A DNA stretch of 45,207 bases from Escherichia phage welsh, in sequence record NC_073078.1; one strand, 5' to 3'. This document shows, in pieces, positions 5,960-39,230 of the stretch; within the stretch, counting starts at the first letter, position 1; the number at the start of each line of letters is the position of its first letter. The position numbers were made by a program, and so were the translations under genes. Under the pieces are notes generated by a model. It was not told the origin of the DNA. It worked only from the letters and a program-made list of their open reading frames with translations, and made no database searches.

Positions 5960-6567
5960 CAACGTTTAAATTGTACGGCGTCTTAGGGCGTCGATTCGGT
6001 AAAGTTCATAAGCTGGACTGCTTCACTCCGGGCGAGGGTATTACCGGCCTGTGCGTGAAGTTACCCGGCTTACAGGACTTTCTAATGTCAGCCCACCTGG
6101 ACAATATGATGTTCAAGGTGCGCAAAGGCGACCACACGATGACCGGCTATGATGAGCTGGGTGAGTTCCACGGCAACCGCGTCGTCACCATCGCGCCGGT
6201 TATGACTGGCGCAAAAAGAGGGTTGGGACAATTGCTGGCGGGTGTCGCGATCGTAGTGGCGTCGTTCTATACGGGCGGACTTGCTACTGCCGCTTTCGGG
6301 GCTTCGGCTGCAACCGCTGCCGCTATCGGGACGGCGACGTTTTCGTTCGGGATGTCGATGGCGCTGGGTGGCGTTATGCAATTGCTGTCGCCACAACCGA
6401 AGGGATTGCAGACAAGGCAGGACGTGGATAACAAGGCGTCGTATGCGTTCGGCGGCCCAGTAAACACTACCGCGCAAGGCACGGCTCTTGGTGTATTATG
6501 GGGCGAGCGTGAGATCGGCGGCGCTATTATTTCAGCCGGAATCGTAACCGAGGACTTGAACGAATGA
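5950..6567 (+). CDS. Tail assembly protein I-like
   Basis: About 200 aa between K and J; Gly/Ala-rich hydrophobic C-terminal half. Confidence 0.65.
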   Translation: MAMTTFKLYGVLGRRFGKVHKLDCFTPGEGITGLCVKLPGLQDFLMSAHLDNMMFKVRKGDHTMTGYDELGEFHGNRVVTIAPVMTGAKRGLGQLLAGVAIVVASFYTGGLATAAFGASAATAAAIGTATFSFGMSMALGGVMQLLSPQPKGLQTRQDVDNKASYAFGGPVNTTAQGTALGVLWGEREIGGAIISAGIVTEDLNE

Positions 6568-9500
6568 CGATTATCTACGACGTCACAGGGCATAAAGGCG
6601 GCGGCGGCAAACAGCACACCCCACAGGAGACGCCAGATAGCCTGCATTCGCTGGCTAAAATCCGCATCTTGCTTGCACTGGGCGAGGGTGAATTCGAAAG
6701 TATTACCAGCGCCAGCGAATTGCGGCAGCGTGTTTACCTGGACGGAACACCGATCCAGAACGCTGACCTGTCCGAAAACTTCCCTGGCGCGCGTGTGGAG
6801 TTCCGCCCCGGCACACAGCACCAGGATGTGATCCACGGATTTTCAGCGGTGGAAAGTGAGCAATCTGTCGGCGTAAAACTGGAAAACGGCACGCCGTGGG
6901 TGCGCCAGATTAACGATACCAGTCTGGACGCTGTTCGCATTCGCATCGGCATTCCAGCCCTGTACACTAACGAAGATAATGGCGACCTGGTGGGCGGGCG
7001 CATCGACTATAAGATAGTTGTGTATACGGATAACGCCGACCCGCGTGAGTTCAGATTCGCCGCCGTTGGTAAAACAATGTCGCTATATGAGCGCGACCAC
7101 CGCATCGAATTACCTCCGAACGTTAACACCGGCTGGCGCGTGGAGGTGCACCGCATAACGGCAGACTCCACATCGGCGAAAGTGGTTAATGATATCCGGG
7201 TGCAGTCCATCACTGAGATTATTGACGCCCGCCTGCGTTACCCGCTAACCGCGCTGTTGTTTGTGGAGTTCGACGCCAAAGCGTTCCAGAACATCCCGCG
7301 CGTGTCCATCAAGTGCAAAGGCCGTAAAGTTCTAATACCGAACAACTACGACCCGATTAATCATACCTATTCCGGGGACTGGGACGGCACGTTTAAACGC
7401 GCATGGACGGATAACCCTGCGTGGCACTGGTACGATATTTGTATTACTGAGCGCTTCGGCCTCGGTCGGCGTATCAAACCGCAAATGTTAAACCGGTACG
7501 CGCTCTACCAGATTGCGCAGCGCTGCGATCAGTTGGTCAGCGACGGCAACGGTGGTCGAGAAATCCGCTTTAAGAATGATATGTACATCCAGTCGCAGAC
7601 AGACGCCTGGACCGTGCTTAAGGATTTGGCGGCCATCTTCGCCGGAATGACCTGGTGGGGTAACCAGATGTTGAATATCGTCAGTGACCAACCGGTCGCG
7701 GCGGTGTCGCACACTATCACCAACGCCTCGGTAATTGATGGGCGATTCGACTACGCATCTGGTAGCCAGAAAACGCGCTATTCCACATTCGCGGTAGCAT
7801 ACGGCAATCCGAAAAACCACTATGAAGATGCTATCGCAACGGGGCAACGTGTCGAACTGGTACGCCGCCATAAGATTAACCGTCTTGATATTACGGCGAT
7901 CGGCTGTACGCGTGAATCTGAAGCGCAACGCCGGGGGCACTGGGCGCTAATCTCAAACCAGCTTGACCAGCAAGTTAGTTTTAAGGTGGGCATGGAGGGG
8001 TTATTCTTTATCCCCGGTAGCGTAGTTGCGATCGCAGATACTAATATTTCTGGCGGATTCGAGACTCGTGGCGGTCGCCTGTTGTCGGACCCTGGAACGC
8101 GTACCGTGCTGAACACGGACAGCGAAATCACATTCCGCCCTGGCGATAAGTTCCTGGTACGCACCGATAGCGGTAATGTGGAGACTCGCGAGATCGCCAG
8201 CGTCAACGGCAACAAGGTTACGCTAAAAACCGCACTTGATGCCGACCCGATTCCAGACCAGCCGTTTTGCGTTGATGGCGACGATATCCAGTTGCAAAAA
8301 TTCCGCATCACCGACCTGGAATATGACGACTCTACGAGCACTTTCTCGGTGCGCGGGATTGAATACAACGATAGCAAGTATGATGCCGTTGATAATGGCG
8401 CTCGCCTTGACCCTGGCATCTTTACGCAAGTGCCTGACGGTGTAATGAAGGGGCCGGAATCCGTGACCATCACCCCGTCGCAGATTTCATCGCAAGGCCA
8501 GCTAATCACCAACGTGGATATTGTATTCCCTCCGGTGAAGGATGCCGTGGTGTATGAAATCCAGTGGCGACGTACCAGCTTGCAGAATATGGAAATCCAG
8601 TGGGGTAACGACTGGGTGAATATCCCACGCACGGCGTCGAACGGCGCGCACATCCCCAACGTGTTCTCCGGTAACTATCAGGCACGCGTCCGCGCGATCG
8701 GTATGGGCGAGATTTCATCTCCGTGGGTGTCGTCCGCCATCACGCCGGTGGAAGGTCGTCTCGGTGGGCTTAACGCACCAATCATCACCAACGCTATTTC
8801 GGGCCTTCACCAGATCTTGTGGAAGTGGAACCACAACAACGCCGCTACTGATATCTCGTACACCGAGCTTGAAGTGCGCAAGACCGGTGAGACTGAATGG
8901 AAATTCCTTACCAACGTCCCATATCCGGGGGCGGAGTATGCGCAAACATCGCTGGAGTTCGGAATTTACCAGCAGTTGCGCGCCCGTGTAGCGGATAAAA
9001 TCGGCAACCTGTCGGACTGGTCGGCCCCGTTTGAAGGGCAGGTGAGTGACAAAGTTGACGAGTACATGAAGGGGCTTGATGACGAGTTCTTGACTTCCGA
9101 GGATGGTAAACGCTTCCAGGAAGCAATCAACACGATCCCGCAGGGTATTTACGAGGCGATGCTCACCGACGCGCAGCAATTGTTCAATGCCCGCGCCGAG
9201 TATAAAGGGATTTATGCGGAAATCACGGTGGCGTATAACGTGGCGGCGGACGCGCATAAAGCCGTAGCGCAACTGGAAACGTTGATCGGCACGCGCCTTG
9301 ATGACGCTGAAGCATCAATCCACACGTTGCAGACTGCGCAAAGCACACATGAACAAGCGTTCGCCCAGTACCAGCAAACTGTTGCCGCTAAGTTTTCGGA
9401 ACAGGAAGCAGCCATCCAGCAGGTACAAACGGCAACGGCGGACGTGGCGGGCGCGCTGGCAGAGTATAAGACCCAGGTCGCGGCGCAGTTCGGACAGCAG

Positions 9501-9983
9501 TCCGCAGCTATCGAGCAGAAGATGACGTCTTCGTTTAACCATGCTGGTGGCAGCGCCACGTACAGTCTTAAGGCTGGCGTGACGTATAACGGGACTTACT
9601 ATGACGCCGGTATGCAGCTTTCAGTTGTGACGTCTGGCAACGCGGTTAAATCCCGCATCGCATTCAAGGCGGACCAGTTCTACATCATGCATCCGTCCAA
9701 TGGGACGCTGTCGTCTGCGTTTATTGTGGACGGTGGCGAGGTGTATATCGACACGGCACGCATCAAGAACGCGTCCATCAACTTCGCGCAGATAACAGAC
9801 ACGCTGCAATCGAATAACTACGACGGCAGCACGCGCGGCTGGCGCTTAGGGAAAGATGGAACGTTTATCAACCTGGGCACCGGTAGCGGCGGCGGGATGA
9901 AACAGACGAACACAAGAATAAGCGTGAAGGACGGAAACGGCGTTCTCCGCGTGCAGATTGGTGAGCTTACTGGTAGCTGGTAG
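6564..9983 (+). CDS. Central tail fibre / host specificity protein J-like
   Basis: 1139 aa, directly after I with overlapping start, as for lambda gpJ. Confidence 0.85.
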   Translation: MTIIYDVTGHKGGGGKQHTPQETPDSLHSLAKIRILLALGEGEFESITSASELRQRVYLDGTPIQNADLSENFPGARVEFRPGTQHQDVIHGFSAVESEQSVGVKLENGTPWVRQINDTSLDAVRIRIGIPALYTNEDNGDLVGGRIDYKIVVYTDNADPREFRFAAVGKTMSLYERDHRIELPPNVNTGWRVEVHRITADSTSAKVVNDIRVQSITEIIDARLRYPLTALLFVEFDAKAFQNIPRVSIKCKGRKVLIPNNYDPINHTYSGDWDGTFKRAWTDNPAWHWYDICITERFGLGRRIKPQMLNRYALYQIAQRCDQLVSDGNGGREIRFKNDMYIQSQTDAWTVLKDLAAIFAGMTWWGNQMLNIVSDQPVAAVSHTITNASVIDGRFDYASGSQKTRYSTFAVAYGNPKNHYEDAIATGQRVELVRRHKINRLDITAIGCTRESEAQRRGHWALISNQLDQQVSFKVGMEGLFFIPGSVVAIADTNISGGFETRGGRLLSDPGTRTVLNTDSEITFRPGDKFLVRTDSGNVETREIASVNGNKVTLKTALDADPIPDQPFCVDGDDIQLQKFRITDLEYDDSTSTFSVRGIEYNDSKYDAVDNGARLDPGIFTQVPDGVMKGPESVTITPSQISSQGQLITNVDIVFPPVKDAVVYEIQWRRTSLQNMEIQWGNDWVNIPRTASNGAHIPNVFSGNYQARVRAIGMGEISSPWVSSAITPVEGRLGGLNAPIITNAISGLHQILWKWNHNNAATDISYTELEVRKTGETEWKFLTNVPYPGAEYAQTSLEFGIYQQLRARVADKIGNLSDWSAPFEGQVSDKVDEYMKGLDDEFLTSEDGKRFQEAINTIPQGIYEAMLTDAQQLFNARAEYKGIYAEITVAYNVAADAHKAVAQLETLIGTRLDDAEASIHTLQTAQSTHEQAFAQYQQTVAAKFSEQEAAIQQVQTATADVAGALAEYKTQVAAQFGQQSAAIEQKMTSSFNHAGGSATYSLKAGVTYNGTYYDAGMQLSVVTSGNAVKSRIAFKADQFYIMHPSNGTLSSAFIVDGGEVYIDTARIKNASINFAQITDTLQSNNYDGSTRGWRLGKDGTFINLGTGSGGGMKQTNTRISVKDGNGVLRVQIGELTGSW

Positions 9984-9987
9984 TATA

Positions 9988-10007
9988 GGGGCTTCGGCCC
10001 CTTTTTA
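9988..10007 (+). terminator. Rho-independent terminator candidate after the J-like gene
   Basis: GGGGC-ttcg-GCCCC followed by TTTTT. Confidence 0.6.
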
Positions 10008-10019
10008 ACGAGGTTATTT

Positions 10020-10322
10020 ATGGCATTCGGTATCGCAACGTGGGACGCGCAAGGACGCCCAAACAACTACGGCATTAAACCGGTAAGCGTGATCGGAAGG
10101 ATTCATCTTGCGGAAGGACAAAAATCAGGCGCATGGTCATTCCCTGTACCGGCGGGGATGAAGGTCGGATACGTGGTCGCACTGGATGAAGGCGCGGTCG
10201 GGCCAGGCCGCAGAATAACCGCCAGCGGGAACACTATCACGGTTTCCGCGGCAAGTGCGGTAGGTGGCGGGGTTTACTCCGCATCTGAATGTGACGTTAT
10301 TGTTTTTGTGGAGCGAGCATAA
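10020..10322 (+). CDS. Hypothetical protein (tail-associated by position)
   Basis: 100 aa ORF with RBS GAGG upstream; no recognisable motif. Confidence 0.4.
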   Translation: MAFGIATWDAQGRPNNYGIKPVSVIGRIHLAEGQKSGAWSFPVPAGMKVGYVVALDEGAVGPGRRITASGNTITVSAASAVGGGVYSASECDVIVFVERA

Positions 10323-10996
10323 TGGCTAATTACGGCGCGTTGATTGACTTACCAAACGGCAACCCGTTTATCACGCCAGAATCGACGCCGTTTTGTCTAT
10401 TCCGCCGTGTGGTTGTTGGGTCTTCGGCAAACGGCACTGCGCAGTCGGCGGCTGCCGATATTAATTTGGGTGGTGACTACCCGGCAATAGCGTTTGTGAA
10501 AACTACGCACACCGCCCAGCCGACCGTCGTAGGGTCTTCTCGCGTTGGTAATGTGGTGAAGGTGAGAGCCAGCAATCCATTCGGGCGAGGCTTCACGATG
10601 ACGGCTTACATCTTTGCCATATTCCCACAGACCCTTCCGCGGTGGGGCTTCGCTATTTGGGATAAGACGGGGAAGCTAGTACTTACTAATGAGAGTCGCG
10701 TACTAAGCGATTTAGTTACCGTCGGATCTCCTGGCGCTAACGGGGGGATTAACATTGACCAGACGCTAAATGGCAGCTACGCCGTCGCTCCGGGCATATT
10801 GGGGTCTACGCTGATCCGGTTTTTTGTGCAGGGCCAGCCGCAAGTAATATCGGTAACGGCGTACACGGGGGCCAGATTTGATGGGTCGCGAACGCGTATA
10901 TCAGCAGCGTCGTCGGGGAACGCCACGGGGGATGTGGTGGGGTATACTAACAACGGCAACGCGATTATGGCGATTAACACGGCCAATTATGATTGA
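10322..10996 (+). CDS. Hypothetical protein (tail-associated by position)
   Basis: 224 aa ORF, start overlaps the previous stop; Gly/Thr-rich, likely beta-rich. Confidence 0.4.
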   Translation: MANYGALIDLPNGNPFITPESTPFCLFRRVVVGSSANGTAQSAAADINLGGDYPAIAFVKTTHTAQPTVVGSSRVGNVVKVRASNPFGRGFTMTAYIFAIFPQTLPRWGFAIWDKTGKLVLTNESRVLSDLVTVGSPGANGGINIDQTLNGSYAVAPGILGSTLIRFFVQGQPQVISVTAYTGARFDGSRTRISAASSGNATGDVVGYTNNGNAIMAINTANYD

Positions 10997-11015
10997 AGAA
11001 AGCCCCGAAAGGGGC

Positions 11016-11234
11016 TTATTTGCAGGTGGTGCTTTTGAAGTGGTCGACCGACACATACTGGAAGTTGAACGGATACCCCGCCTTGAGCATTTTGTGCCCG
11101 CTAAAGTCGGCGACACCGAACACTGGTACAGAATACTCCATACCGCTATTCATATATGTCGCGTCGCAGATTTTAGACGGCATACCGGCACAACCGGACA
11201 GAAGAACCGCACAAATCATAATTAAAGTTTTCAT
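11016..11234 (-). CDS. Small lipoprotein, candidate receptor-blocking superinfection exclusion protein
   Basis: Internal ATG at 11234 with AGGAGA RBS; MKTLIMICAVLLSGC is a signal peptide with lipobox LSGC; 72 aa; opposite strand, between tail genes. Confidence 0.55.
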   Translation of the reverse strand: MKTLIMICAVLLSGCAGMPSKICDATYMNSGMEYSVPVFGVADFSGHKMLKAGYPFNFQYVSVDHFKSTTCK

Positions 11235-11313
11235 GTTATCATCTCCTATATTTGGTTGAGTTTTAGTATTACACCTCTCAACCAGGATTGCAACCAATTA
11301 CGAGGATTTAGCT

Positions 11314-13740
11314 ATGGCAGCGGGCACACTATCCGTAACGAATAACAGCAAGGCGGTTGTCGGGGTAGGCACGACGTTTACCGCGTTTAAAGCCGGAGAC
11401 TTCTTAACGCTGGTGGTGGGCCAAGTACCCTACACCGTAGCGATCGCGTCCGTTGAAAGTGCAACCGCGCTAACGCTGGTGCTGCCGTTCGACGGCCCAA
11501 CGGCAACCGGCCTCGCGTGGGATGGCGTTAAGCGCGATACCATGTCGCTGGCAACGATGGGCGTTACCGTACAGGCACAGAAAGCGTTGCGCTTGATGAT
11601 CGCAGATGAAAACAACTGGCGCGCTATCTTCGGCGAAGAAGAAGAAATCTCGGTCACGCTACCGAACGGTCAAGTGGTGCAGGGTATGTCGTGGGGCTAC
11701 CTGTCAAAACTGCTTAAAGACGTAGATCCTGTTGAATTGCAGGCTATCGCGGACCAGACCATCACGGCTAAAAACCAGGCGCAAGGATTCCGTAACGAGG
11801 CGGAAGGATTCAAGAACACCGCGAATACCGCGAAAGAGGCCGCAGTAGCTGCGAAGACCGCGGCTGAAACGGCGCAGGGTAAAGCCGAGACAGCTACTGC
11901 GGCAGCGGAGTCCGCGAAGACTGCCGCCGAAACAGCTAAATCGCAGGCCGTAACCGCTAAAGACCAGGCAAAAGGATTCCGTGACGAGGCAGAAGGCTTT
12001 GCGAACAGCGCGGACGCCTCGCAGAAAGTGCCGTATGCGGGCGTAACCGTAAACCCTCCTACTGGCGTGAGGGATATGCTAAAGCGGTTGCGCGATTCGG
12101 TCAAAGGCGGATTCTGGCGCGTTGATGATATTTCGCAGTTCCAAGCGGGGGATATGACCCCTTTCAGATACGGACCTGGCGTATGTGGCGGCGCAGGGGA
12201 CACATTCTTTGCAATCAACGTTGACTGGCGAACCTCGCGCGTTAAAGTTTTCTCGGGAAACAACAACGCGATCAACGGGTCGTCGGGCAGTGTGAGCGCC
12301 ATTGAGCTTGCGAAGCTGGGGGCGAACGGGGGCGTGGCGATCGCGGACGGCGGGACCGGTGCATCGGACGACCAGGGCGCGAGAAAAAACCTTCAGGCAA
12401 TGCACGAGCGACAGGCATCGTTGAATACTGAAGATCTTAACGTCCTTCAGGGTGATAAGGCTGGGTTTTATTATCAGTCCATGTCGGCTGACGCCACCCC
12501 AGAGCGTAACTATCCTATTAACATGGCGGGTTGTTTACTGGTGCAAAGATCCGGTGCTAACGATCCGAAGAGTTGCGTACAGACGTACACCGCATACGGC
12601 AACGGGCGGCGTTGGATTCGATGGCTAGGCAACGCGACGACTGGCCCATGGTCGCAGTGGTACGAATTATATAACGCAGGGTCGTCGCCGACTTTTTCAG
12701 GGGTGGTCGCTGGTTCTTCGGTGGAGGCTAGAGGGAACGAAAAGCGCGCAGTTCTTCGCACCTGGCCTAATGATGTATCTGTTTCCAACTCGGCATCTAA
12801 TAAATTCTTGCAATTAAGGGACAATGGTGAGCTTGCATACGACAACAAGCTGATTGCCTATGACGGCCTTGCGGCCAGTGGCACTTTTGCTATGACCGTC
12901 CCTAGCATTAAAGTTACAACAGCCAATGGCGGATTTCGTATCGACGGCACCACCGCCACAAACAACCAGCCACTTCACGTAACAGGCTACAACTCCGCAG
13001 GCACGCGTCTTTGGTTTTTAGGGAAGGACACCGGGACGAACGCGCTATTCCTGAACGATGTTACATCGTCTAAGGTTGAGCTGATCACAGACGGCGTTGT
13101 GCTTGGTACAAAGGATTTTGCGGGCAAGGCATACGTCCAGGCCGCAAGTTTAGAGATCGACCGACCGAGCGGCAAGTATTTCAAAATGCTGAACGACGGC
13201 AACTCGTCGCACCCGGCAACCTTCAAATTATGGGGTAACGGGTCTGATAGGGCGTCGGTTATTGAGTGTGGTTTTGATAACGGCCCTGGGTGGGTGTTTT
13301 ACGCCCAGTATAACGGCGACGGCACGCGCCAGATGAACGTTAACGGAACGGTAAACTGTACGACGGTAAACCAGTCGTCTGACCGCGAGTTGAAGGATAA
13401 CATCAAGCCGATCGAGAACGCTCGCGCTGGCCTTGCTAAGATGGGTGGCTATACCTACACCCTGAAGAAAGACGGTATGCCGTACGCTGGGGTGATTGCA
13501 CAGGAAGTAATGGACGTTGTGCCGGAAGCGGTGAGCACTTTTGAGGACTACGAATACCTGGCAGGGCCAACGAAAGACGGCGAGGAACTGGTAGGGCGTC
13601 AGCGCTTCTTCCAGGTGGATTATGGTGCTATTGCTGCATACGCGGTGCAAGTGTGTAAAGAACAGGAAGAGGAACTGGTGTCATTGCGTAGCGAACTGGA
13701 GGAATTGAAAGCTGCCGTAGCGGCATTGACTAAAGCATAA
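11314..13740 (+). CDS. Tail fibre protein with C-terminal intramolecular chaperone (peptidase S74-like) domain
   Basis: C-terminal about 130 aa (SDRELKDNIKPIENARAGLAKMGGYTYTLKKDGMPYAGVIAQEV...) resembles the self-cleaving chaperone domain of phage fibres and endosialidases. N-terminal Ala/Lys-rich region has an internal duplication (GFRNEAEGF / GFRDEAEGF). Confidence 0.8.
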   Translation: MAAGTLSVTNNSKAVVGVGTTFTAFKAGDFLTLVVGQVPYTVAIASVESATALTLVLPFDGPTATGLAWDGVKRDTMSLATMGVTVQAQKALRLMIADENNWRAIFGEEEEISVTLPNGQVVQGMSWGYLSKLLKDVDPVELQAIADQTITAKNQAQGFRNEAEGFKNTANTAKEAAVAAKTAAETAQGKAETATAAAESAKTAAETAKSQAVTAKDQAKGFRDEAEGFANSADASQKVPYAGVTVNPPTGVRDMLKRLRDSVKGGFWRVDDISQFQAGDMTPFRYGPGVCGGAGDTFFAINVDWRTSRVKVFSGNNNAINGSSGSVSAIELAKLGANGGVAIADGGTGASDDQGARKNLQAMHERQASLNTEDLNVLQGDKAGFYYQSMSADATPERNYPINMAGCLLVQRSGANDPKSCVQTYTAYGNGRRWIRWLGNATTGPWSQWYELYNAGSSPTFSGVVAGSSVEARGNEKRAVLRTWPNDVSVSNSASNKFLQLRDNGELAYDNKLIAYDGLAASGTFAMTVPSIKVTTANGGFRIDGTTATNNQPLHVTGYNSAGTRLWFLGKDTGTNALFLNDVTSSKVELITDGVVLGTKDFAGKAYVQAASLEIDRPSGKYFKMLNDGNSSHPATFKLWGNGSDRASVIECGFDNGPGWVFYAQYNGDGTRQMNVNGTVNCTTVNQSSDRELKDNIKPIENARAGLAKMGGYTYTLKKDGMPYAGVIAQEVMDVVPEAVSTFEDYEYLAGPTKDGEELVGRQRFFQVDYGAIAAYAVQVCKEQEEELVSLRSELEELKAAVAALTKA

Positions 13741-13746
13741 CGAGAA

Positions 13747-13769
13747 GGGGCCATCCGGCCCCTTTTTTA
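13747..13769. terminator. Bidirectional terminator between the tail fibre gene and the end of the leftward operon
   Basis: GGGGCC-atcc-GGCCCC followed by TTTTTT on the + strand; genes converge here. Confidence 0.6.
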
Positions 13770-14342
13770 GTTTGAGTTTTCCCAGTCCATTTTGCGCCGC
13801 ACCAGCGGGCTTTCGTAATATTCCTTGCCTTCCACTTCCACCAGAGGCCAGTCGTTCACAATCACGTATGGCTCTGCGATATCCTCGATCACGCCGTGCG
13901 CGCTTTGCGGCCCTAACGATACACCCACCAGGATAACACCGGCAACGCGACGTGACAGATACTCGCGAGCGCAACGCGCCTCTACCAGCCCGCGACGGAT
14001 GCCGCTGGTGGCTTTAACCTCGTAAGTCCAAACGGCATCGATCACATGCTCGCGGAAGTCGGGGCCGGATTTAACCTTGCGCTTACCGACCATAATAATA
14101 TCGCCGCGGTCAATGGTATTGGCGCTAAACAGGCCGGTACGCATGAGCAAGCCTTGCGGTATGCAACTACGCCCGCCCGCCTGCCCCTCAAGGTACATAC
14201 CGGCAAACATCTCGCCCAAAACACCGACAAGACGGCTTTGCTTGCACGCGTCAGACTTTAAGCGCCACTGGTCAAACTCGATGCTTGCTATCATCGCCGC
14301 AAGGTGGAATTGTTTACCGGATATTTCATATTCGCCGTACAT
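13767..14342 (-). CDS. Hypothetical protein, possible PD-(D/E)XK-type nuclease
   Basis: 191 aa; RBS GAGGA before ATG; segment HVIDAVWTYEVKAT fits a D...ExK nuclease signature. The product call is weak. Confidence 0.35.
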   Translation of the reverse strand: MYGEYEISGKQFHLAAMIASIEFDQWRLKSDACKQSRLVGVLGEMFAGMYLEGQAGGRSCIPQGLLMRTGLFSANTIDRGDIIMVGKRKVKSGPDFREHVIDAVWTYEVKATSGIRRGLVEARCAREYLSRRVAGVILVGVSLGPQSAHGVIEDIAEPYVIVNDWPLVEVEGKEYYESPLVRRKMDWENSN

Positions 14343-14384
14343 CGTGTGGTCCTCATTGATGCGGGCCGAAGCCCGCGATTAGAA

Positions 14385-14939
14385 TTATTTCAGTGCGCTA
14401 CGTACCAGTGTTTTTTCCATGTTGCGGAAGTCTTCCGGCGTCATGAGGGTTTTGGATCCGTCTTCGCCAGTTAGAACTACCATAGGCTGGACGTCCTGGG
14501 CTACAACTCCGAAATTGGCAGCTTTAACGGTCTTCCCTAACGAGGCCGCCATATCCTCGGTAACGCGCATTGCACTGTTATACGCATTAATCTCGCCATC
14601 AAGACGCACGGACAGACCTTTGAGGCTTTCAAACTGTTCTGCCGTTGTATCGATCTGAATCTCGTCATGCACGGTCATGTAAGACTCGCCCAGCAGGGCG
14701 GCATACGCTACCAGGTCCACGATGTTATCTTCCTGGTGTTTACGGTGCTGGCGTACCAGCTTTAGGCAGATCAAGAAGGTCCAGGCTTCTTGCTCGGTCA
14801 GGTCGCGACCGGTAAGCGCGTTAAACACGGCGGCAATTTGTTTCGCGCTGCGTTCCTCTTTCGCGTTGTCATAGCCGTTTTCTTTTCCGCGCTGTTCCAT
14901 AGTGGTGGCGGCGTTTTTGCAGTATTCGTATGCTTTCAT
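14385..14939 (-). CDS. Hypothetical protein
   Basis: 184 aa. N-terminal pattern EQRGKENGY...LTxxDxxxFLICLKLVRxxxK...DNIVDLVAYAALLGE resembles a domain I recall from phage nucleotide-metabolism proteins, but I cannot name the family with confidence. A GGGAGGC-n6-GCCTCCC hairpin sits in the 5' leader. Confidence 0.45.
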   Translation of the reverse strand: MKAYEYCKNAATTMEQRGKENGYDNAKEERSAKQIAAVFNALTGRDLTEQEAWTFLICLKLVRQHRKHQEDNIVDLVAYAALLGESYMTVHDEIQIDTTAEQFESLKGLSVRLDGEINAYNSAMRVTEDMAASLGKTVKAANFGVVAQDVQPMVVLTGEDGSKTLMTPEDFRNMEKTLVRSALK

Positions 14940-31538: not shown

Positions 31539-31829
31539 ATGGATAAGCTAAACGAGTGGTTATTCGCCCTTGCGTGTCTTGCTGGTGGCTTCGTAGGCGC
31601 ACGCATTCATGGCGAGGCAACGAAAGGGCCGCTAAATTTTGTGTTGTTTATCGTGGTCGGCTTCTTGTGCGCCGTGTTTGGGGCACCAGCTATTGCCGAG
31701 TGGTTTAATCTAACCGGACCGAGAACTGTCGCTGGTCTTGGCTTCGTAACGGCAATCTTCTGGATGCCGGTCGCCGCCAGAATCCGTGAAGCAATCTCCT
31801 CGTTCCGTCTGCCGGGGAATGCAAAATGA
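31539..31829 (+). CDS. Holin candidate (three transmembrane segments)
   Basis: 96 aa with three hydrophobic segments and a charged C-terminus, directly upstream of the lysozyme. Confidence 0.55.
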   Translation: MDKLNEWLFALACLAGGFVGARIHGEATKGPLNFVLFIVVGFLCAVFGAPAIAEWFNLTGPRTVAGLGFVTAIFWMPVAARIREAISSFRLPGNAK

Positions 31830-32065
31830 TTATCGCCATCCTGTTATTAGTGATCGGGGCTTCGTCGCTGTATAACGTATACGCGCCATCCGTCCAGGAT
31901 GGCATTTGCGGACGGGTGCTCTACCTGCTTACAGCAATGACCTGTATTATTGGCCTGATGCAAACGGGGGACGTATCGAATACAGTCTGGTCCGTGCTAA
32001 TCTGGCTATTCGCATTACGCACACTGCGTAATGCTGTTTTAAATGGGGTAAAACATGCGATTTAG
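31826..32065 (+). CDS. Second small membrane protein of the lysis cassette (holin or antiholin candidate)
   Basis: 79 aa with two or three hydrophobic segments; overlaps both neighbours. Confidence 0.45.
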   Translation: MIIAILLLVIGASSLYNVYAPSVQDGICGRVLYLLTAMTCIIGLMQTGDVSNTVWSVLIWLFALRTLRNAVLNGVKHAI

Positions 32066-32546
32066 TGACAACGGTCTAAGATTTACGGCAGCGTGGGAGT
32101 CGTTCAGCCCAGTGCCGTATTTCGCGACTAAGAAGGAGCAGGCCCGCGGCTTGTACACCTGGGGCTATGGTCACACCGGCACTAATCCGCCACGAAGCAT
32201 TACCCGTGCGGAAGCGCTGGAACTGCTCAAGCGAGATGTGGCGTATGCCGAGGACTGGGTGAACAAATACGCACATCCGAGCATTAACCAGGCGCAATTC
32301 GACGCGCTGGTGGATCTGGTAATCAACGCCGGTCCGGGTCCGATCGTACCGGATGACGTCTCGAACGACTTTGATGATGCGGTGCGACGGGGAGACTGGG
32401 AGAAGGTCCGTGCTATTCTGCCGCAGTTCCGCAAGCAAGGCGGGTCGGTGCTCTTAGGTCTGGTCCGTCGCGCAATTGGCAGACAGGCGCTATTCGATGG
32501 TAAGCAGTGGGACGTTGCCGAGCGAATCGGGCGTAACGCAGCATAA
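32055..32546 (+). CDS. Endolysin, GH24 lysozyme (T4/P22 type)
   Basis: FSDNGLRFTAAWESF...GLYTWGYGHTG and INQAQFDALVDLVINAG match the lysozyme-like catalytic region and conserved helix. Confidence 0.85.
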   Translation: MRFSDNGLRFTAAWESFSPVPYFATKKEQARGLYTWGYGHTGTNPPRSITRAEALELLKRDVAYAEDWVNKYAHPSINQAQFDALVDLVINAGPGPIVPDDVSNDFDDAVRRGDWEKVRAILPQFRKQGGSVLLGLVRRAIGRQALFDGKQWDVAERIGRNAA

Positions 32547-38796: not shown

Positions 38797-39097
38797 GTAT
38801 GCAGCGATTGGGCTGGTAATTGGCCTGGCGGTTGGATTCTGGCTGGGTGATTCCTACCGCGCTGGCGTTGTGGCGAGAGCGGCGCAAGAAGCGCAAGCGA
38901 AAGCCCAACGGCAGCAAACTAAGGTTGTCGAGGGGGCAGTGCAGGCCGAACAGGCCCGCGATGTGGAATACCGGACTATCACGAAAGAGGTTGTGAAATA
39001 TGTTACGCGTCCTAACCGTCCTGATTGCAGTTTTGATGCTGAGCGCGTGCGGATCAAGCAAAGCGCCATTGATGCCGCTAACCGAGTCGGTCTATAG
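38789..39097 (+). CDS. i-spanin (Rz-like)
   Basis: GTG 38789 with GGGGG RBS (track ORF starts at TTG 38759); N-terminal transmembrane helix AAIGLVIGLAVGFWL, then a coiled-coil Ala/Gln-rich periplasmic domain. Confidence 0.6.
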   Translation: MIKYAAIGLVIGLAVGFWLGDSYRAGVVARAAQEAQAKAQRQQTKVVEGAVQAEQARDVEYRTITKEVVKYVTRPNRPDCSFDAERVRIKQSAIDAANRVGL

Positions 39098-39230
39098 ACC
39101 TCCTTGCACCTTTGAGAATGCCTCGGCAGATCCAGACGAAGACTTGCTGGTTGATGTTAAGAATATGGAGTGTGGAGCGAAGCTGCGGGCGCAAGTGCTG
39201 GAGTTGCAGAAAATAATTCGGGGGCCGTGA
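39000..39230 (+). CDS. o-spanin (Rz1-like lipoprotein), overlapped architecture
   Basis: Signal peptide with lipobox LSAC, Pro-rich; starts in another frame inside the i-spanin gene and extends beyond it. Confidence 0.65.
   Translation: MLRVLTVLIAVLMLSACGSSKAPLMPLTESVYRPPCTFENASADPDEDLLVDVKNMECGAKLRAQVLELQKIIRGP

Follow-up and report, generated by a model that had tools for sequence, protein, structure and literature searches.

A Cor-family superinfection-exclusion lipoprotein gene beside the receptor-binding module of a Dhillonvirus, with FhuA as its predicted target

INTRODUCTION

The small lipoprotein Llp of bacteriophage T5 binds the periplasmic face and the plug of FhuA and closes the loops EL7 and EL8 of this receptor. 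The llp gene is expressed before, or independently of, the T5 late genes. The termini of Llp are tied together by a Cys11-Cys58 disulfide (PMC9586334). In the case of Rtp45, the structure places the lipoprotein on the periplasmic side of LptDE (9RPS; PMC12685063).

Exclusion of FhuA-dependent phages and loss of FhuA transport have been reported for the Cor proteins of phages phi80, N15 and mEp167 (PMC13164509; bioRxiv 10.64898/2026.03.26.714494). According to PMC13164509, the three-gene cor cassette is found, among the BASEL phages, only in FhuA-using Drexlerviridae and Dhillonvirus; the same source credits Wietzorrek et al. 2006 with its presence in T1, HK022, N15, ES18 and phi80, all of them FhuA-dependent. 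It also gives an AlphaFold3 model in which FhuA is bound from its periplasmic side by a T1-like Cor, and notes Cor-like proteins in BtuB-using phages (PMC13164509). Cor and Llp have been placed in one structural family (PMC13164509; bioRxiv 10.64898/2026.03.26.714494), and the Cor-FhuA mechanism has been described as experimentally unsolved even for T1 or phi80 Cor (bioRxiv 10.64898/2026.03.26.714494).

Dhillonviruses are virulent E. coli siphoviruses with genomes of 43-46 kb (PMC8594841), and two of them, Envy and JLBYU37, have been reported to depend on FhuA (PMC10373560). Here we analyze a small reverse-strand gene of Escherichia phage welsh (NC_073078.1). The whole stretch of DNA studied, hereafter the window, comprises 45,207 bp and is probably a complete, circularly permuted genome. 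Its best DNA matches in the phage collection searched, ~94% identical over the first 25 kb, were Dhillonvirus phages such as jat and LF50P3, and by these matches the genome is that of a Dhillonvirus, a virulent E. coli siphovirus. Searches of the entire window disclosed neither tRNA genes nor any Rfam family that passed the gathering threshold.

RESULTS

Anatomy of the cor gene and of its product

The features of the locus are collected in Table 1. The cor reading frame encodes a protein of 72 aa, MKTLIMICAVLLSGCAGMPSKICDATYMNSGMEYSVPVFGVADFSGHKMLKAGYPFNFQYVSVDHFKSTTCK, and is the sole reverse-strand gene within the plus-strand tail module. It lies between the gene of the J-like tail tip protein and that of the lateral tail fibre, being convergent with orf224 (19-bp gap) and divergent from the fibre gene (79-bp gap).

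Table 1 Positions of the cor gene, its signals and other genes in the 45,207-bp window
Feature	Position	Strand	Description
J-like tail tip protein	6564-9983	+	1139 aa; last ~40 residues co-vary with cassette type
orf100	10020-10322	+	First cassette gene; PHROG 557 "outer membrane protein", E 1.1e-32
orf224	10322-10996	+	Second cassette gene; PHROG 425 "membrane associated protein", E 3.9e-70; stop codon 10994-10996
Bidirectional intrinsic-terminator hairpin	10995-11016	.	AGCCCC-TTTC-GGGGCT, between the convergent orf224 and cor
cor	11016-11234	-	72-aa prolipoprotein; from sequence, PHROG and NCBIfam matches, and conservation
cor start and stop	ATG 11234-11232, TAA 11018-11016	-	Reading of the ORF
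Shine-Dalgarno sequence	11242-11247	-	AGGAGA, 7 nt before the cor ATG
Candidate sigma-70 promoter of cor	11265-11293	-	-35 TTGCAA (11293-11288), 17-nt spacer, extended -10 TGT-AATACT (11273-11265)
Lateral tail fibre	11314-13740	+	808 aa; tail fibre PHROGs; C-terminal Peptidase_S74 intramolecular chaperone domain (PF13884, E 2.2e-13, residues 689-740)
Two reverse-strand genes	13767-14939	-	191 aa and 184 aa
Holin	31539-31829		
Endolysin	32055-32546		
Spanin-like lipoprotein	39000-39230	+	76 aa, lipobox LSAC

Residues 1-14 follow the pattern of a signal peptide, with the n-region MK and a ten-residue hydrophobic core (TLIMICAVLL), and lead into the lipobox LSGC, with Cys15 as the acylation site predicted by this pattern. 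This is a textbook type II signal peptide, from which export and lipidation are predicted. In E. coli, a residue other than Asp at position +2 directs lipoproteins to the outer membrane by Lol-dependent sorting (the +2 rule). The +2 residue of Cor is Ala, hence the protein is predicted to be sorted to the outer membrane. The mature domain has 58 aa and includes Cys23 and Cys71 (mature positions +9 and +57). Alignment with the Cor proteins of T1, HK542 and Stx2-86 showed that Cys15, Cys23 and Cys71 are common to all of them, with Cys15 and Cys71 being invariant in the six aligned sequences (6/6). All the structural features that the initial annotation had assigned to this locus were recovered: a 72-aa protein encoded on the minus strand between the tail-tip and tail-fibre genes and divergent from the latter, a signal peptide with lipobox (recognized here by its pattern) and a strong RBS, AGGAGA.

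When all 45 kb of the window were scanned in six frames for signal peptides followed by a lipobox, two ORFs only were returned, cor and the spanin-like one. The latter, the only other predicted lipoprotein in the window, is found ~6.5 kb from the holin and endolysin genes and adjoins head genes.

The reality of the gene was assessed from its conservation. Across seven dhillonvirus cor alleles, pN/pS was 0.05-0.16 at a pS of 0.3-0.6; with synonymous divergence this high, such ratios indicate purifying selection on the Cor protein. Matches to Cor were obtained by tblastn in 241 phage records. Together with the full-length matches to Cor-family HMMs (see below), these results ruled out a chance ORF and confirmed cor as a real, well-conserved gene.

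Expression signals

At the ribosome-binding site of this gene position, 17 of the 18 dhillonvirus loci compared below carried AGGAGA or AGGGGA. Further upstream, within the divergent gap, a candidate promoter agrees with the sigma-70 consensus in 8/12 positions. The alignment of the 18 loci revealed that TG-n-AATACT was kept in 17/18, n alone varying (T/C), and that the first hexamer had a constant TTGC followed by two variable bases (TTGCAA/TTGCAT/TTGCGT). Since cor stands alone on the reverse strand inside a plus-strand tail module, an own promoter of host type is the simplest reading, and we presume the candidate promoter to be functional. By analogy with T5 llp, it would let cor be expressed before, or independently of, the late genes.

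The TAA codon of cor runs into a hairpin that also lies directly 3' of the orf224 stop codon on the plus strand. It is followed by a T-run, TTTCTTC, on the minus strand and by TTATTT on the plus strand, and its minimum free energy, calculated with ViennaRNA in a 41-nt context, was -12.4 kcal/mol for the minus and -13.8 kcal/mol for the plus strand. In the T1 record, a rho-independent terminator is annotated at the equivalent place, the 3' end of cor. Both the cor promoter and the hairpin were identified by direct reading, conservation and ViennaRNA folding. The promoter/terminator scanner, run with a threshold of 9/12, listed neither of them: the promoter was missed because a match of 8/12 falls under the threshold and the hairpin, in our reading, because an extra A-T pair shifts the window in which the T-run is sought.

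Membership of the Cor family

The family PHROG 1119 ("Cor superinfection exclusion protein") matched residues 1-72 of the protein (E 5.3e-28), and NF047972 ("phage exclusion lipoprotein Cor"), an equivalog model of NCBIfam with a curated cutoff of 31, matched residues 2-71 of 72 with 62.8 bits. The Pfam search gave no match for Cor, orf100 or orf224, from which it follows that Pfam holds no Cor model that fits. The protein jat_41 (QHR76421) of Escherichia phage jat, annotated as "super-infection exclusion protein," was 100% identical to Cor. In tblastn, T1 Cor was 49% identical and the Cor proteins of lambdoid phages of the HK type were 40-45% identical. A Cor allele with at least 74% identity was present in 75 phage records, and in many of these it is already labelled Cor or exclusion protein. 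By pattern, the gene product is a small prolipoprotein of the expected kind (~70-80 aa, type II signal peptide, lipobox Cys, non-Asp residue at +2), and cor comes after J together with genes of PHROG 557 and PHROG 425, that is, in the known cassette. By these matches, Cor is a full-length member of the known Cor superinfection-exclusion family.

The initial annotation had taken the gene for a candidate receptor-blocking protein like Cor or Llp and had proposed a homology search against these families. The search brought the full-length Cor matches just described, and the fold match to Llp given below, though weak, is in line with the exclusion reading. As to its status, the assignment to exclusion lipoproteins was right, while "candidate" understates what was already available, since the protein has been annotated and the system published in the same genus.

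Predicted structure of Cor

The homologue search for structure prediction returned only six close relatives, hence the AlphaFold2 model was calculated from a shallow alignment of the window Cor and these six sequences. Its mean pLDDT was 75.6, with values of ~87-89 for residues 21-70, and it contained five beta-strands. We compared the model with 350,542 PDB chains by using Foldseek, and the top match was 8a60_B, T5 Llp bound to FhuA. The match was weak (E 0.035, probability 1.00, TM 0.49/0.56, rmsd 2.9 A, 51 columns, 25% identity) and ranked barely above many Tudor/chromo beta-barrels. It is consistent with the folds predicted in the literature for other Cor proteins (PMC13164509; bioRxiv 10.64898/2026.03.26.714494). 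A profile made of the same seven sequences also matched 8a60_B, with an E of 0.009 that was partly due to the signal peptide. Following the example of the Llp disulfide, Cys23 and Cys71 of Cor are putative disulfide partners.

The predicted exclusion gene across dhillonviruses

For a comparison within the genus, 16 dhillonvirus loci were retrieved from IMG/VR, the query being the first 600 aa of J, which are conserved, and those of jat and of the BtuB-dependent PTXU06 were added. The region from J to the fibre gene was typed in these 18 loci. A small reverse-strand lipoprotein gene was present beside the fibre gene in all of them (18/18), and its mature domain was of five types, which changed in step with the intervening genes and the final ~40 residues of J. 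In type A, comprising the window and seven loci, the slot holds orf100, orf224 and Cor. In type B, represented by PTXU06, three genes lie on the reverse strand, among them a PHROG 425 homologue (a 204-aa relative of orf224) and a distant Cor relative (PHROG 1119, E 3e-7). Types C and D, eight loci, combine a reverse-strand gene for a protein of 314-324 aa with a PHROG 4281 lipoprotein, and type E (two loci) combines a J extended to 1262-1272 aa with a PHROG 12984 lipoprotein.

Cor occurred in every locus with the orf100/orf224 module (8/8) and was absent from the nine LptD-type and long-J loci, from which orf224 was absent too; PTXU06, the tenth locus outside type A, has only the distant Cor relative. 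The C-terminal 200 aa of J aligned in full only in loci with a Cor or Cor-like cassette, whereas in LptD-type and long-J loci the alignment stopped at residue 160. In type C, the 324-aa protein proved to be the LptD receptor-binding protein whose structure has been solved for Oekolampad (9RPT/9RQI, E 1.7e-210), and the type D lipoprotein matched Rtp45 (9RPS_D, E 1.4e-39). Thus, in LptD-type relatives the Cor slot holds an exclusion lipoprotein proven by structure.

From these comparisons, the partner with which the slot lipoprotein co-varies is the J C-terminus/orf100/orf224 module and not the divergent lateral fibre. Only the first ~145 aa of the fibre were conserved in all cassette types, and in jat an identical Cor is accompanied by a fibre of 476 aa. 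DNA similarity to the closest relatives ended ~400-500 bp into the fibre gene; with the shorter fibre of jat, this indicates that exchange of the distal fibre is not tied to the receptor module and presumably serves glycan specificity. The initial annotation had placed the gene between tail-tip and tail-fibre genes and had likened it to lipoproteins encoded beside receptor-binding genes; the receptor module cognate to Cor is the J/orf100/orf224 side and not the fibre.

The strand switch comes immediately behind the fibre gene, where the two reverse-strand genes of Table 1 are the first on the minus strand. Their products are full-length members of PHROGs of unknown function (PHROG 10558, E 4.5e-118, for the 191-aa protein; PHROG 9871, E 7.6e-121, for the 184-aa protein), and the 184-aa protein had, in addition, a weak partial match to families labelled "phosphofructokinase."

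Two sub-types could be distinguished within the FhuA cassette. The orf224 product of the window was 98-99% identical to those of loci L003, L004 and L007 and 52-53% identical to those of L006, L010 and L015. The window Cor was closer to the L006/L010/L015 group (92-97%) than to the L003/L004/L007 group (87.5-90%). Put in terms of named types, Cor was 94-97% identical to the L010/YD-2008.s type and orf224 was Envy-type (99%). The discordant affinities of the two genes are suggestive of recombination between them, at or near the terminator that they share.

The two type E loci (L016 and L017; J at 8001-11789 and 8001-11819) have no separate receptor-binding gene. Their slot lipoprotein, of ~80 aa, carries the sequence SPSNCV(A/I)DY. 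These loci may represent a LamB-type module with an uncharacterised exclusion lipoprotein.

Upstream of the mature domains, the DNA, the RBS and often the whole signal peptide, MKTLIMICAVLLSGC, were nearly identical in nucleotides across the 18 loci (11190-11313 in the window; L002-L018 in the others). The mature domains that stand behind this common signal peptide are unrelated, being Cor, the distant Cor of the BtuB phage or Rtp45-like. For types A, B and C, the break directly follows the codon of the lipobox Cys; for types D and E, it comes after about five codons. We tentatively propose, at slightly less than even odds, that the slot acts as a recombination "socket," which would keep the promoter, the RBS and often the signal peptide while unrelated exclusion domains, directed at FhuA, BtuB or LptD, are joined at the lipobox Cys, receptor-binding and receptor-blocking specificities being swapped as one cassette. 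The pairing of a receptor-binding locus with an exclusion gene has already been published, and the published accounts, as far as they are covered here, do not mention a joint at the signal-peptide boundary. An exchange joint at the lipobox cysteine is an only mildly new detail.

Role of orf100 and orf224

The two genes between J and cor hold the same position in T1 and HK542. The order J, orf100, orf224, terminator and reverse-strand cor is the same in T1, while HK542 has the three genes co-directional. Inspection of the orf100 and orf224 sequences disclosed no visible signal peptide or transmembrane segment, and orf224 had no sequence relative in the PDB. The constant company of the three genes, in 8/8 loci and also in T1 and HK542, raises the possibility that Cor, orf100 and orf224 form a three-part membrane exclusion system, rather than a stand-alone blocker paired with a virion receptor-binding protein, and a relation of this sort to the exclusion mechanism is speculated upon in PMC13164509. 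We regard it as improbable. Proteins that lack a visible signal peptide or transmembrane segment are poor candidates for such a system, and orf100 and orf224 are encoded after J on the late structural strand, whereas cor is on the opposite strand with its own promoter-like element. Moreover, the equivalent gene of LptD-type phages encodes a proven receptor-binding protein, the BASEL paper (PMC8594841) and a 2026 preprint treat such loci as a receptor-binding protein plus accessory or exclusion genes, and Llp and Rtp45 are described as acting alone (PMC9586334, PMC12685063). It is more likely that orf100 and orf224 are receptor-binding components of the virion, with orf224 as the probable FhuA-specific one.

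FhuA as the probable receptor

The J C-terminus, orf100 and orf224 were 98-99% identical to those of locus L004, which we have taken as Envy, and the DNA of the cor locus was 94.6% identical to that of JLBYU37. This near-identity to FhuA-dependent relatives strongly argues for FhuA as the probable receptor of this phage.

A Cor-family lipoprotein could nevertheless be directed at another TonB-dependent transporter or outer-membrane protein. The distant Cor in the same slot of the BtuB-dependent PTXU06, like the Cor-like proteins noted in BtuB-using phages (PMC13164509), supports that the family is not restricted to FhuA. The identity to the PTXU06 protein, however, is only ~40%, much of it in the signal peptide, whereas the Envy/JLBYU37/jat alleles share 85-100% identity with Cor, which is accompanied by the nearly Envy-identical J tip, orf100 and orf224. 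A target other than FhuA is, therefore, very improbable for this allele.

A role in lysis, with Cor as the outer-membrane spanin subunit (Rz1-like), was considered because o-spanins, too, are in general small lipoproteins of the outer-membrane type, and the conserved cysteines would suit one. It was rejected, since Cor matched no spanin PHROG and the Cor families over its full length, cor is ~20 kb from the holin and endolysin genes and neither embedded in nor adjoining an i-spanin gene, the match to the "Rz-like spanin" family PHROG 5672 (E 1.2e-25) fell on the other lipoprotein ORF of the window, and a lysis protein would have no reason to switch type with the receptor module.

DISCUSSION

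We consider it highly probable (about 0.87) that the product of the gene is Cor, a small lipoprotein of the outer membrane with which the phage inactivates FhuA, the terminal receptor that it uses itself. Host RNA polymerase would transcribe cor from the sigma-70-like promoter in the 79-bp divergent gap and would terminate at the hairpin shared with orf224. The prolipoprotein would then be exported by Sec, acylated at Cys15 and cleaved by signal peptidase II. Its 58-aa all-beta mature domain, probably clamped by the Cys23-Cys71 pair, would bind the periplasmic face of FhuA from the inner leaflet of the outer membrane. By analogy with T5 Llp, binding could close the extracellular loops of FhuA allosterically, in such a way that the J tip/orf100/orf224 module cannot dock. 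For a virulent phage, the infected cell would be spared superinfection and the progeny would be spared loss on FhuA-bearing debris.

As an annotation, the gene predicts the use of FhuA by this phage. A further prediction, of relevance when phage cocktails are designed, is that infected cells resist T1, T5, phi80 and other phages that depend on FhuA. Any well-expressed Cor allele, including this one, could serve for an experimental structure of Cor with FhuA. As a discovery the gene carries little weight, since the family, its cassette and the FhuA link in the genus Dhillonvirus are known from published work, and an identical protein, that of jat, is already annotated.

Comparison with known systems

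The closest described systems are the exclusion proteins of other dhillonviruses (jat_41, Envy, JLBYU37, CEC_Kaz_2018 and others). These proteins are identical to Cor, in jat, or 74-97% identical, they occupy the same slot, and there is no difference of substance.

With T1 Cor (ST30, YP_003915) and the Cor proteins of phi80, N15, HK022 and mEp phages, Cor shares full-length homology, size and lipobox, as well as the three-gene cassette after J. Both mature-domain cysteines and the motif (R/K)AGYPF are common to T1 and HK542 Cor, and in T1, as here, cor runs on the minus strand towards a terminator that it shares with the convergent gene. The association with phages that depend, or are predicted to depend, on FhuA is likewise common to both. 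The host phage, however, is a Dhillonvirus and not a Tunavirus or a lambdoid phage, and the sequence has diverged by ~50%. The lambdoid phages have cor in the same direction as their tail genes and express it from the prophage, whereas the phage studied here is virulent.

T5 Llp (8A60 chain B) and Cor, whose place in the outer membrane and link to FhuA are predicted, are both small outer-membrane lipoproteins of virulent FhuA siphoviruses, encoded beside a receptor-binding gene, and the terminal cysteine pair, joined by a disulfide in Llp and putatively so in Cor, is at similar positions. In contrast, identity is limited to ~25% over 51 columns, Cor matches no Llp-specific family, and pb5, with which T5 binds its receptor, has no relation to the J/orf100/orf224 module. 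For Llp the mechanism has been solved; for Cor it has only been modelled.

The Rtp45-type lipoprotein (9RPS chain D) has a mature domain unrelated to that of Cor (PHROG 4281 vs PHROG 1119), and its target is LptDE and not a TonB-dependent transporter. In LptD-type dhillonviruses, it nonetheless occupies the same genomic slot behind the same upstream DNA, with some alleles having the identical signal peptide MKTLIMICAVLLSGC. Both would work on one principle, in which a lipoprotein on the periplasmic side puts the receptor of its own phage out of action (PMC12685063).
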